IMG/VR virus record: IMGVR_UViG_3300046796_000541
Location: 1 to 58,657 of that record
DNA length: 58,657 nt
Strand: one strand, 5' to 3'
DNA from: a virus
Taxonomy: Duplodnaviria > Caudoviricetes
A program made the position numbers and the translations under genes. Below, piece by piece: positions 44,432 to 49,079 of this stretch. Below the pieces are notes generated by a model. That model was not told the DNA's origin. It did no database searches and saw only the letters and a program-made list of their open reading frames with translations. Positions within the stretch are counted from its first letter, which is position 1. Every line of letters starts with the position of its first letter.

Positions 44432-47326
44432 GTGTTCGACGGCGACCGCGAGCTAGCCGAACGCCTGCTCTGGATGCTCCAGGACCGCCAGCAGCAGGAC
44501 GCCGAGCTCCGCAAGCAGGCCGCCGCCGTGGCCGAGGTCCACGCGCAGCACGAACCCGAGCAGGCCGCGGCGGCCGCCATGCTGCGGTCGCTCTACGCGC
44601 CCAAGCAGGCCGCGTTCTTCCGCCCCGGCAAGAGATGGAAGGCGACCCGCAAGACGCGCCGCGCCGGCATCACCACCGTGGGCGTGCGCGAGATGCTCGC
44701 GCGGGCCATCGAGATCCCCGGGTTCCGCGCGACGTACGTGGCGAGCACCCGCGGCGAGGCCGAGGATCGCGCGTGGAAGTCCGACACCAAGAGCGGGCTT
44801 ATCGATGTCCTGGTCCGGCACGCCGAGCGTATCGACCACCCCACGCTGACCGCGTACTCGCTCGGCGGGGTGGCGATCGAAGTGCGTGCAGCCGACCTCG
44901 TGCTCCAGTTCTCGAACGGATCCGAGATCGAGCTGTTCGGCGTCGCCGATCTCCGATCGCAGCGAAAGAAGCGCGGCGGCGCGAAGCACCTGATCTGGAT
45001 CGACGAGGCGCAGGAGTTCGCGCACCTCGAAGAGTTCTTCGACTCGGTGATCGTCCCGATGTCGGACTTTGGCGTCGAGGTCTGGATGACCGGCACGCCC
45101 GGCCGCGACTGCGCCGGCATGTTCTACGAGATCACCAAGGAGCCCGAGGACGGCGACACGCCCATGCCGGGGTGGGAGGTCCACGAGCTCGCGCAGGTGG
45201 ACAACCCGTTCTTCGGCCACGTCGTCACCGACACGACGGCCTGCGCCTTCTACGTCGAGGACAACCTGTTCACGGCGCCGCACCTGACCGCGGAGCAGCG
45301 CGCGGAGCACCGCTACGGGCCGTTCGACACGACCGCGGACGCCGAGGCCGAGGCGGTGCGCGTGCGGTGGGAGCAGACCGCCGGCGAGGCGATGCGGCTC
45401 AAGGGCTGGAAGGGCGACGAGCCCCAGTTCGTGCGCGAATTCCTAGGGAAGTGGGTCAAGACGGACGCGCGCTACGTCTACCCGGTCCACGGCCGGCCGC
45501 GGCATGAGCTGTTCTTCGCGCCGCAGCGCCTGCGCGATAACCCATTCGTCGGCAGCGACCCGCGCTTCGACGGCCACCCGCCCTGGTACGACCACGTCGC
45601 CGCGGTGCGCGACCTGCCGAGGCTCGGCCGGGATCGGCGCCCGCACGAGTGGCTCTACTCGCTGTGGTTCGACTTCGGCTTCTGGCCCGACCCGTTCGCG
45701 TGCGTGCTCTGGGCGTTCACGACGACGTTCAACCACGTCTACGAGATGTTCAGCTGGAAGCAAACGAAGGTGCACGCCGACGACCAGGCGCGCTACATCA
45801 AGCTCCTGTGGGACGTCGAGCCGGCGATCGTGTCGTTCGGCGGCGATTCCGCGGGCAAGGAGGCCGACTTCGCCGAGTGGAAACGCCGGCTGAACCTGCC
45901 GCTCGAGCCAGCGCACAAGCAGGGCAAGGAGACGCTGGCGGAGCTGCTCGCGGGCGACATCCGCGGCGGACTGGTCCATCTACGCGACGGTTCCCCGCTC
46001 TACGTAGACAAGGACGGCAAGCCCCTGCAGTCGCCGCTCTATACCGAGATGCGGCACCTGGTCTACCTGCCGACCGCGCCGGGCAAGCCGCGCAAGGTCC
46101 ACAAGCACCGGGCGGTGAGCGGAGTGGTGCACGGCGACCACTGTTGTCTCGTGACCGGGACGATGGTCGAGACCGCGAGCGGCCCGGTGCCCATCGAATG
46201 CGTACGGCTCGGTGACCTTGCCTGGACCCGCGCGGCGCCGCGCCCGGTCACGGCGGCGTTCTCGGTCGGCGTGCGACCGACGTTAGGCGTTGACCTCGAT
46301 ACCGGAGCGACGCTGGTCGGAACCGCGGACCACCCCGTCTGGACGGAGCGCGGCTGGGTTCCTCTCGCGGAACTGATGCCGGGTGATACACTCACGACAT
46401 GGGCAAGTACGGCAGAGCAGAGACCGTCATCTTCAACGGCCGGAGGTATCGGCGATATCCCGACGCCGAGCATCGAACCTCGCGCGTCTACTTCTCGCGA
46501 ACCGTCAAGCGGGGCGGCATTGGTCGACCCGAGTTCCTGCACCGAGCCATCTGGGCGAGCATCAACGGATCCATCCCCGAGGGATTCGACGTGCACCATC
46601 GAGACGACGACCCGCTCAACAACGACCCCGGGAACCTCATCATCCTGCCCGGAGACGAGCACGCCCGCATGCACGCCAGCCAACCTGAGCGCGTCGCTCG
46701 AGCTCGCGTCAGCATCGCCAAGGCCCAGCTCTCAGCTCCGGCATGGCATCGCTCCGCCGAAGGACGAGCTTGGCATGCCAAGCTCGGCGTTGCCGTCATG
46801 GCCGGACGTCCGATCCTCACCACCGGGTGCCTTCACTGCGGAGCCGAGTTCCAGACCAAGAACTCCGACGCGAAGCACTGCTCCAACGCCTGTCGGGCCG
46901 CCGCGCGTCGAGCGAGCGGAGCCGACGATGTCGACCGCGTCTGCACCTGCTGCCGAGGGATGTTCCGCGCGAACCGCTACTCGCGGCAGCGGTGCTGCTC
47001 CCACTCGTGTGCTTCGCGTCTATGCCACCGGGAAGGATGAGCGCGTGTTCAACCTGACCGTCTCCGGCGAGCATGAGTACTTCGCGAACGGCGTGCTGGT
47101 GTCGAACTGCGACGCCGGGCGCTACGGCTTCGCGGACCTGACCCACTACCTGGCCAAGCTCGCAGGCGAGCGCCCGCCATCCGGATCGCGCGAGGCGTAC
47201 GCCGCCGAGGAAGCGAAGATCGAGCGCTCAATCGAGGAAGCCGACCGCCGGCGCGAGGAAAGGCTGGACGAGCAGGACGAGCTTGCTGCAGAGTACGGGG
47301 CGATGGGAGACTACGATGCCTACTGA
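44432..47326 (+). CDS. terL: Terminase large subunit precursor with intein (643 aa after splicing)
   Basis: RRAGITT (Walker A-like), LIWIDEAQ (Walker B), MTGTPG, FDFGF..D; spliced junction restores DHCCDAGRY nuclease motif. Confidence 0.92.
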   Translation: MFDGDRELAERLLWMLQDRQQQDAELRKQAAAVAEVHAQHEPEQAAAAAMLRSLYAPKQAAFFRPGKRWKATRKTRRAGITTVGVREMLARAIEIPGFRATYVASTRGEAEDRAWKSDTKSGLIDVLVRHAERIDHPTLTAYSLGGVAIEVRAADLVLQFSNGSEIELFGVADLRSQRKKRGGAKHLIWIDEAQEFAHLEEFFDSVIVPMSDFGVEVWMTGTPGRDCAGMFYEITKEPEDGDTPMPGWEVHELAQVDNPFFGHVVTDTTACAFYVEDNLFTAPHLTAEQRAEHRYGPFDTTADAEAEAVRVRWEQTAGEAMRLKGWKGDEPQFVREFLGKWVKTDARYVYPVHGRPRHELFFAPQRLRDNPFVGSDPRFDGHPPWYDHVAAVRDLPRLGRDRRPHEWLYSLWFDFGFWPDPFACVLWAFTTTFNHVYEMFSWKQTKVHADDQARYIKLLWDVEPAIVSFGGDSAGKEADFAEWKRRLNLPLEPAHKQGKETLAELLAGDIRGGLVHLRDGSPLYVDKDGKPLQSPLYTEMRHLVYLPTAPGKPRKVHKHRAVSGVVHGDHCCLVTGTMVETASGPVPIECVRLGDLAWTRAAPRPVTAAFSVGVRPTLGVDLDTGATLVGTADHPVWTERGWVPLAELMPGDTLTTWASTAEQRPSSSTAGGIGDIPTPSIEPRASTSREPSSGAALVDPSSCTEPSGRASTDPSPRDSTCTIETTTRSTTTPGTSSSCPETSTPACTPANLSASLELASASPRPSSQLRHGIAPPKDELGMPSSALPSWPDVRSSPPGAFTAEPSSRPRTPTRSTAPTPVGPPRVERAEPTMSTASAPAAEGCSARTATRGSGAAPTRVLRVYATGKDERVFNLTVSGEHEYFANGVLVSNCDAGRYGFADLTHYLAKLAGERPPSGSREAYAAEEAKIERSIEEADRRREERLDEQDELAAEYGAMGDYDAY
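46145..47107 (+). mobile_element. Intein, 321 aa
   Basis: Block A CLVTGTMV, block B GTADHPVWT, block F RVFNLTV..HEYFANG, ends VLVSN followed by +1 Cys. Confidence 0.95.
46399..47040 (+). CDS. HNH homing endonuclease with C-terminal Zn-finger repeats, nested out of frame in the intein
   Basis: LHRAIW...IPEGFDVHHRDDDPLNNDPGNL...EHARMH; CLHC..CSNAC and CTCC..CSHSC; own ATG, GGTGAT SD-like sequence upstream. Confidence 0.92.
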   Translation: MGKYGRAETVIFNGRRYRRYPDAEHRTSRVYFSRTVKRGGIGRPEFLHRAIWASINGSIPEGFDVHHRDDDPLNNDPGNLIILPGDEHARMHASQPERVARARVSIAKAQLSAPAWHRSAEGRAWHAKLGVAVMAGRPILTTGCLHCGAEFQTKNSDAKHCSNACRAAARRASGADDVDRVCTCCRGMFRANRYSRQRCCSHSCASRLCHREG

Positions 47327-49079
47327 AGCCACCCACGAGGAGCGCGATGCGCGAGAAGCCCGCGATCGTCGAGAGCTAGAGGGGCTTCGCGCGATGCGCG
47401 AGGGGCTGAAACGCTTCGTCGCGGGACTCGATGACGAGGACGACCACGGGCTCATCGCGGAGCAACTCGAGGCCCTGCTCGCGCTCGCCCCGGATCCTGC
47501 CGTCGAGGACCGCTCGTGACCTTGATCTACGCGCTCTCCGGCATCCTGCTGGCGACCGCGTTTCTGACCTACCTGATCACCGAAGGGAACCGCAAAATCA
47601 TGGCCGACATCTCCAAGCTGACCGCTGCCGAGCAGGACCTCATCGTGAAGACGGATGCTCTGCTCGCGTTCGCGACCACGCAGAACACGCTGATCGCCCA
47701 GCTCCAGGCGACGATCGCCAACGGCGGGATCGACCCGACCACCGCGGCCGAGCTGCAGGCGCTTGCCGACAGCATGGCGGCCGAGAGCGCCAAGGTCACC
47801 GCATTCCTGCCCCCGACGGCCCCATGACCCGCGTCCAGTCCGACCGCCTCGAGCTCATCGCCAAGCGGTCACACCGAACCATCGACGACGTGACCGAGTT
47901 CTGGAACGAGCGTGCGGCGATCCGCGAGTACGACGGCGGAAAGCGCCGCGTGGACGCCGAGCGGCTCGCGCTCGATGATGTCGCGGACGTGGTGCTGCGG
48001 TGATGCCCGACAAGGTCGATCGGTTGCTGTCGCCGCGCGTGGACGGCGTCGGGCTCTGCATCCCGCAGACGTTCAGCGCGACGTTGGAATTCCGCCGCAC
48101 GTACTACCAGCTGCGAGATCCATGCGTCATTCACCCCGTGCCGAACGGCTACGTCGAGCAGCACCACGAGAGGATCCGGTGGTCTCGGTTCGCCCTGCTG
48201 TGGGCCGCGCTCGGCGCGCAGATGGTCATCGAGCACGAGGTCCCGTCGTGATCCCCGAGGTCTTGCGTGCCCGGCTCCGGCCCGGATACGCGATCGGGCT
48301 GATGTTCGCGCTCGCGGTGGTGCTCGGCGTCGCCTGCGCGACCACCGGCGCGTGGATGCTCGCTGCAGCAGACCGAGCGGCGGAGATTGATCGTCAGGTC
48401 GACCAGATCCGACGCGAGACCGACTGGTTGGAGGCCGAGCTCCACTGCACCGGCGGCGCGGCGCAGCACCGGGACGGCGAGAGCCGGTGGTGTCAGCGAT
48501 GAGCTGCACGTACGAGACCGCGGTCGCGGATCTGCAGATTCGCGTCACCGTGAACGCGGACTGGTCTGGGCTCGCGCGGATCGGAATCGACCGCTACGAC
48601 GAAAACGGCAAGGCGACGGGCCACGCGCAAGCCGTGTGCTCCGCGAGCCGGCTGCTGGTCGGCATCGTTGATGAAGTCGGACCAGAGGCAGGGCAGATCC
48701 GGTGGCGCGAATGGCCGATGGTTGTCGCGCTCGCCGTCCGCGAGCACTTCCGCGCCCGCGCCATCGCCCACATCGAGGGCATCCCATCGTGACCACCCGC
48801 ATCCCGCCGCCCGGTCCGTTGGAGCACGACCTCGACGGCGACCCGCTGCCCCAACCGGCCGCCGCGTCCGACCTCGCGGACCTGATCCAGCTGCTCGAGT
48901 ACGCGCGCGCGAAGGACTTCGTGCTCGGCCCGATCGTCCAGGTCGGCAAGATCCGCTGTCAGGTCGCGGATCTCCGGCAGGCCAAACGGCACGGGCTTGA
49001 CCAGCAGCGCAGCTCCGAACCCGAGCCCTCGATGGGCGACCTGGTCGGGGTGCCCGAGTACAGCCCCGGCAGCGAGTGA
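47316..49079 (+). other. Seven small genes (47316-47519, 47516-47827, 47824-48003 with ERAAIREYDGG motif, 48003-48251, 48248-48502, 48499-48792, 48789-49079)
   Basis: Chained overlaps. Confidence 0.6.

Follow-up and report, generated by a model that had tools for sequence, protein, structure and literature searches.

A probable mobile intein in a phage terminase gene, with an HNH endonuclease overprinted in the −1 frame

The viral record IMGVR_UViG_3300046796_000541 (Caudoviricetes) was analysed over its whole length of 58,657 bp, which we call the window; coordinates refer to this stretch, and the terL, intein and HNH features given here lie on the + strand. Its gene for the terminase large subunit, terL, contains an intein, and within the DNA of the intein a complete HNH endonuclease is encoded in a different reading frame. 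Sequence comparisons and structural models indicate that this is very probably a mobile composite, formed by a self-splicing intein and a separately translated, −1-frame homing nuclease of the HNH_3 family.

The terL open reading frame (ORF) is continuous from 44432 to 47326 and encodes a 964-aa precursor, in which an N-extein (44432–46144) and a C-extein (47108–47326) flank a 321-aa class 1 intein (46145–47107; TerL residues 572–892). The precursor carries both marks of a terminase large subunit. It matched the profile of PHROG 2, terminase large subunit (E 1.5e-29), and Terminase_6N (22.1 bits, cut-off 22), and conceptual splicing restores the TerL nuclease motif (D/N)HxxDAxRY, which reads DHCCDAGRY in the window. 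The intein is inserted within this motif (DHx|C-DAxRY), its translation, CLVTG...VLVSN, being flanked by GDHC and CDAGRY. The initial annotation of this DNA had proposed a 321-aa intein at this site, with which both the translation and the Pfam match to Hint_2 agree; the Pfam support is modest (28.9 bits for Hint_2, cut-off 28.4), and Intein_splicing scored 26.5 bits, below its cut-off. Of the class 1 residues, C1, T60-A-D-H63 of block B (TxxH), N321 and C+1 are present. In a family alignment of the window with 43 other loci, T60 is nearly invariant, and H63 and N321 are invariant.

The AlphaFold2 (AF2) model of the intein consists of two confident lobes, residues 1–90 and 283–321, with a predicted local distance difference test score (pLDDT) of ~89–98. 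The N-terminal splicing domain (46145–46414), with Cys1 and the TADH of block B at residues 60–63, has a pLDDT of 97–98 over residues 1–80 and 89 over residues 81–90, and the C-terminal splicing domain (46991–47107) has a pLDDT of 95–97 and ends in Ser-Asn, as had been noted at the outset, followed by Cys+1. Between the lobes runs a stop-free linker of ~190 aa (46415–46990), rich in Ser, Thr, Pro and Arg and disordered (pLDDT 40–55, no secondary structure); it stands, as the initial annotation had said, where an endonuclease domain would be expected. The intein is predicted to fold, to splice itself out and to restore DHCCDAGRY. A reading of the insert as an intron was excluded by the HINT features together with an Rfam scan of 45800–47500, in which nothing matched and nothing pointed to a group I or II intron.

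The nuclease is encoded by a 213-aa ORF at 46399–47040, in the −1 (third) frame relative to the intein and at offset 2 from the TerL frame. All 642 nt of it are contained within the intein ORF, and its 3′ end reaches into the C-terminal splicing region; the ORF coordinates confirm the dual coding that had been proposed for these 642 nt. The sole Pfam match at E ≤ 1 was HNH_3 (51.2 bits, cut-off 24.8), and the ORF also matched PHROG 15471, 'HNH endonuclease' (E 1.2e-34); PF13392 was present in 78 of the 78 HNH homologues listed. The HNH_3 catalytic core spans residues 46–90 (46534–46668); H66 and H67 are invariant in the family, and N79 and H92 are invariant or nearly so. Two zinc ribbons follow. 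The first (46828–46893; C144, C147, C161 and C165) has invariant cysteines and resembles the FCS-type zinc finger 2l8e (E 0.0065), and the second (46942–47010; C182, C185, C200 and C204) has conserved cysteines and a YacG-like match, 4tma_I (Z 2.1). The family-invariant His, Asn and eight Cys positions are all kept in the window, in keeping with the earlier description of a complete HNH with two zinc-finger repeats, and the AF2 model has a mean pLDDT of 96.8. The best solved structural match was I-HmuI, the HNH nicking homing endonuclease of the group I intron of Bacillus phage SPO1, which ranked top with a middling score (Z 7.3, root-mean-square deviation 3.9, 82 residues; Foldseek E 0.017); a PDB sequence search with the HNH gave zinc-finger matches only. 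Judged by its sequence and model, the HNH appears intact.

The same arrangement was found in other phages. A tblastn search with the HNH found homologues in Tetrasphaera phage TJE1, Acinetobacter phage Highwayman and Clostridium phage phiCDHM19, in each case within an unbroken, annotated terL gene, and ORF listing placed the nested HNH at offset 2 in all three alike; the nested ORF is unannotated in their GenBank records (L001, L002 and L004). An IMG/VR profile scan gave 550 related stretches, of which 80 loci were kept, and HNH tblastn matches were near full length in 78 of these. An intein block-G motif lies 3′ of the HNH in 54 of the 80 viral loci and in the three GenBank phages, always on the + strand and in the frame HNH+1, an assignment made by arithmetic on the reported coordinates. 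ORF listing was applied to 11 of the 80 loci. In five of these (L005, L012, L024, L021 and L051) the HNH is nested at offset 2, which raises the number of nested loci to at least 55 of 80; four (L007, L035, L064 and L070) have free-standing HNH genes beside an intein-less terL; a further free-standing homologue, in BP10, lies upstream of terS. The initial annotation had called the arrangement rare, which does not hold for this HNH family; nor does it appear confined to actinophages. The composite seems to be old and widespread rather than a local accident of the window phage.

The insertion points vary within (D/N)HxxDAxRY: DHx|C-DA in the window, TJE1, L012 and L024, DA|C-RY in Highwayman and L005, and H|S-AD in L021. 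The same intein and HNH family is thereby seen at three insertion points within five residues (L002, L005 and L021 compared with 46142–47113 of the window), and one of those three copies has Ser rather than Cys at +1. Among the free-standing genes, that of L035 (2845–3723 of that locus) encodes a 292-aa member with a third zinc-ribbon repeat and is convergent with terL on the opposite strand.

The record itself is complete and carries direct terminal repeats; portal and major head genes sit downstream of terL, and GC content around the terL locus is ~65–73%. The initial annotation had set a check for indels in advance. Three further runs from soil or rhizosphere (X2–X4, coded as different studies and of low depth) gave contigs that cover parts of 46231–47298 with no gaps and no indels; another run, X1, may be the sample from which the window came. 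The overprinted arrangement is not a sequencing artefact; assembly error is excluded because the frame is conserved across phages. One X2 contig skips 39 nt (13 codons, in frame) at 45991–46031, in the TerL N-extein, and looks like a length variant from a related population.

All 43 loci tested, and the window, lack stops in the intein frame, over 303–330 codons each. In AT-rich phiCDHM19 and Highwayman it has no stops, whereas the third + frame (HNH+2) has 33 stops in 221 codons and 25 in 215 codons, respectively. The free-standing BP10 gene has 12 stops in 213 codons in HNH+1 and 37 in HNH+2. From these counts the intein frame is held open by selection, as is evident in the AT-rich phages although not in the window by itself, and HNH+1 is the cheaper of the two frames to keep open. 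The linker has few conserved columns (among them two invariant Gly residues and a TSTT run); these are what the HNH motifs WH...WH and HxHH yield in the shifted frame, and we regard them as shadows of the other frame. Three loci (L041, L042 and L008) were too diverged for codon-position counts.

Start signals for the HNH were compared in seven copies. In the window, an SD-like (Shine–Dalgarno-like) GGGTGAT at 46381–46387 lies 11 nt 5′ of the ATG and is encoded by the P-G-D codons of the intein, much as the initial annotation had described. It includes an HNH-frame TGA (46384–46386), which closes the HNH frame four codons before the ATG and leaves an open frame of 217 aa. An HNH-frame stop occurs at most 11 codons upstream of the start in five of the seven copies, and SD-like sites precede four of the seven starts. 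Good sites are present in the phiCDHM19, L021 and Highwayman copies, that of phiCDHM19 being AAAGGAG, 8 nt before a GTG start. Because stops lie close upstream in the HNH frame and SD-like sites precede four of the starts, internal initiation is the likely route to the HNH, and −1 frameshifting is unlikely.

That the family is mobile was seen in Acinetobacter phages. A megablast search with the Highwayman terL matched 42 Acinetobacter phage records, and the 981-nt element was present in Highwayman only. The terL flanks of phage Acba_21, which lacks the element, are 99.5% identical to those of Highwayman. Substitutions cluster beside the insertion site at the Highwayman/Acba_21 junction, with residue +1 changed from Leu to Cys, and this cluster resembles a co-conversion tract. 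The presence/absence pattern expected of a homing endonuclease is thus found in a relative (1 of the 42 Acinetobacter records), and such polymorphism is typical of homing.

The TerL clade of the window was sampled as the best 120 homologues of the N-extein (50–100% identity). Among these best 120, 112 are 558–653 aa long with no Hint-family Pfam domain listed, three are 702–743 aa long and have mini-inteins at the same site, and five are 917–964 aa long with Ser/Thr-rich linkers; a HINT-type Pfam domain is present in eight. The closest relative among them, P0083 (84% identity, 632 aa), is intein-less and reads HGDHLCDCARY. The clade therefore contains empty sites, mini-inteins and nuclease-bearing inteins side by side, in agreement with a homing cycle. 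The mini-inteins of P0156, P0160 and P0200 (~125–140 aa) have a short loop exactly where the window has the HNH-coding stretch. The intein-less TerLs of L007 (1507–2949; DACRY) and P0083 (DHLCDCARY) already have Cys at the +1 position, which either marks a past loss of the intein or made the site suitable beforehand.

The initial annotation had also proposed that a free-standing HNH gene invaded a mini-intein. The free-standing homologues next to terL and the mini-inteins at the same site fit this proposal, whereas the sequence identities give no direction: the BP10 HNH shares 51% identity with the nested copy of Highwayman, the free-standing HNHs of L007 and L064 are closest to nested L005 (49 and 45%), and pairwise identities fail to separate nested from free-standing copies. 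Such an invasion is consistent with the data as an origin, while the identities favour neither a direction nor a number of nestings; since the frame is uniform in all nested copies, any such nesting event would predate the window phage. Tentatively, and with rather less than even confidence, we suggest a broader scheme in which a single ancient composite of intein and −1-frame HNH has been kept across phages of Actinobacteria, Proteobacteria and Firmicutes as a stable end state rather than a passing stage on the way to an in-frame domain. The −1 frame would be the one to survive since HNH+1 is ~3 times less stop-prone than HNH+2 (12 against 37 stops in the free-standing homologue), and free-standing genes, mini-inteins and composites would be interconverting stages of one homing cycle, an intein counterpart of collaborative homing.

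For the window phage, the composite would work as follows. TerL would be translated as the 964-aa precursor, from which the HINT domain, split by the ~190-aa disordered linker, would fold and excise itself. The DNA of the linker also carries the −1-frame code for an I-HmuI-like HNH_3 endonuclease with two zinc ribbons, which would be made separately from its own ATG behind the SD-like site. In co-infecting phages this enzyme may cut or nick those terL alleles that lack the intein, and repair would then copy intein and nuclease together, which is homing. The HNH frame would be under protein-level selection, while over the overlap the intein frame would be selected only for the absence of stops. 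Splicing, nuclease activity, the target site and homing in the window phage are all inferred here; the feature is real and intact, and it probably works as a mobile intein whose HNH is translated separately.

Several points weigh against this reading. The penultimate His of class 1 inteins is replaced by Ser320; this position is variable in the family (S, H, L, G, K or Q), and the penultimate His is dispensable in some inteins. An obvious SD site is absent at three of the seven HNH starts compared. In the window alone the open second frame is weak evidence, because the DNA of the overlap is ~67% GC and even the third frame (HNH+2) has only 1 stop in 213 codons; the strength of the overprinting case comes from the HNH homology and the AT-rich relatives. 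The homing-type polymorphism is known from relatives and not from the window phage's own population. Redundancy among the 80 loci was only partly removed, L014–L020 being identical over the HNH.

Of the other explanations, the one with most to be said for it is that the nested HNH is a terminase packaging cofactor like HK97 gp74, kept in terL for co-expression, and not a homing nuclease. Each free-standing homologue examined does adjoin terminase genes, upstream of terS in BP10 and beside terL in L007, L035, L064 and L070. An HNH of the gp74 type would, however, be found in all related phages with the same terminase, and it is not: HNH matches occurred in only two Acinetobacter phage records (E ≤ 1e-5), against 42 with the same terL, and the element is sporadic in the TerL clade of the window. 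Most of the Acinetobacter phages that share this terL thus do without any copy, and the HNH_3 family assignment and the best structural match, a homing enzyme, also speak against such a role; we consider it unlikely. Distinctly unlikely, too, is a decaying HNH relic, in which a mini-intein would carry a junk linker and no nuclease would be made. Long open frames do arise easily in GC-rich DNA, as the nearly stop-free third frame illustrates, and the SD site of the window is weak and 11 nt from the ATG, but a relic would hardly retain every invariant catalytic and Cys residue in a confidently modelled fold, or near-full-length matches in nearly all loci and a frame maintained in AT-rich phages.

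The remaining two explanations concern the frame itself. A −1 ribosomal frameshift could in principle fuse the HNH to the N-extein and the N-terminal half of the intein, and the −1 frame is indeed used in all nested copies seen, as well as, in the accessible text of two 2025 papers discussed below, by the ShiLan HNH and an endonuclease VII-like nuclease. The HNH-frame stops just upstream of the start in the window and in most copies compared make this very improbable; the 12 nt between the TGA and the ATG of the window lack a slippery heptamer, and good SD sites precede the HNH in phiCDHM19, L021 and Highwayman. Nor is it credible, beyond the slightest chance, that compensating indel errors in the assembly mask an ordinary in-frame HNH intein. 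In-frame HNH_3 inteins do exist, for example in the dCTP deaminase of cyanophage CL131 (PMC6293099, available text), but contigs from three other runs have no indels, every nested copy examined has the same offset, and no in-frame HNH–intein fusion was found among 2112 longer-protein candidates, which is weak evidence. The preferred reading thus remains the mobile intein with a separately translated HNH.

Other inteins were also seen. In Gordonia phage Clown (L085, 1770–4529), the TerL intein starts near the N-terminal third, at a site other than that of the window. Intein N-terminal halves like it were found in several further genes. In Mycobacterium phages Blubba and Cane17 these carry a portal annotation, and in Vibrio phage K391 a DNA helicase annotation; for Xanthomonas phage FoX3, one of the two records gives DNA helicase and the other head morphogenesis.

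In at least 55 loci, ranging from GC-rich to AT-rich, one stretch of DNA has to encode a folded nuclease in one frame and be merely open in the other, a large natural data set suited to studying the constraints on overprinting and the acquisition of nucleases by inteins. Gene callers miss the nested HNH. With Highwayman and Acba_21, a pair is at hand in which experiments could address the homing of an intein whose nuclease is translated separately.

Among known systems, I-HmuI (PDB 1u3e) is the best structural match, over HNH residues 10–98, and differs in being intron-encoded, only 20% identical and without the two C-terminal zinc ribbons. In collaborative homing, described for cyanophage psbA, a free-standing nuclease gene acts together with an intron lacking one. 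By analogy, our family also has free-standing nuclease genes beside a gene whose insertion site they may target, and collaborative homing has been proposed as a route to composites; there, however, the partner is an RNA intron and not an intein. The CL131 dCTP deaminase intein also combines an HNH_3 nuclease with an intein in a phage gene and, according to the available text, spliced in Escherichia coli (PMC6293099), but its nuclease is a domain of the intein polypeptide and not a separate overlapping ORF.

In the literature searched, from which supplements were outside the scope, no out-of-frame HNH in an intein was found, and a term search of the available text of PMC5050341 gave no mention of out-of-frame nucleases; the nearest cases are two papers of 2025. 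One describes the ShiLan insertion in mycobacteriophage DNA methylases (Arsenault et al., Genes 2025, PMC11855218). As far as its accessible text goes, ShiLan likewise has a hidden third-frame HNH (195 aa) with zinc fingers, an open host ORF and a patchy distribution, but no splicing domains were detected, whereas the window HNH is enclosed by a complete intein. No Mycobacterium phage record matched our HNH query (P0002) at E ≤ 1e-5, and no Gordonia phage record did so. The other, a preprint on actinophage inteins (bioRxiv 10.1101/2025.01.02.630785), reports out-of-frame nucleases and bears out the initial annotation, which had mentioned such cases from actinobacteriophage surveys. In its accessible text, the splicing blocks enclose a same-strand nuclease ORF in frame 3, over which the intein frame has neither stops nor structure; the host genes include TerL, and an origin from a free-standing nuclease gene is proposed. 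The window has this architecture. Its nuclease, however, is not of the endonuclease VII-like type (1E7D, residues 1–67) described there, where HNH is listed as an in-frame type only; it is an HNH_3 with two zinc ribbons, and its family reaches phages of Acinetobacter and Clostridium. The architecture has therefore been known since 2025, while the HNH_3 type, the breadth across phage groups and the fixed frame appear to be described here for the first time.

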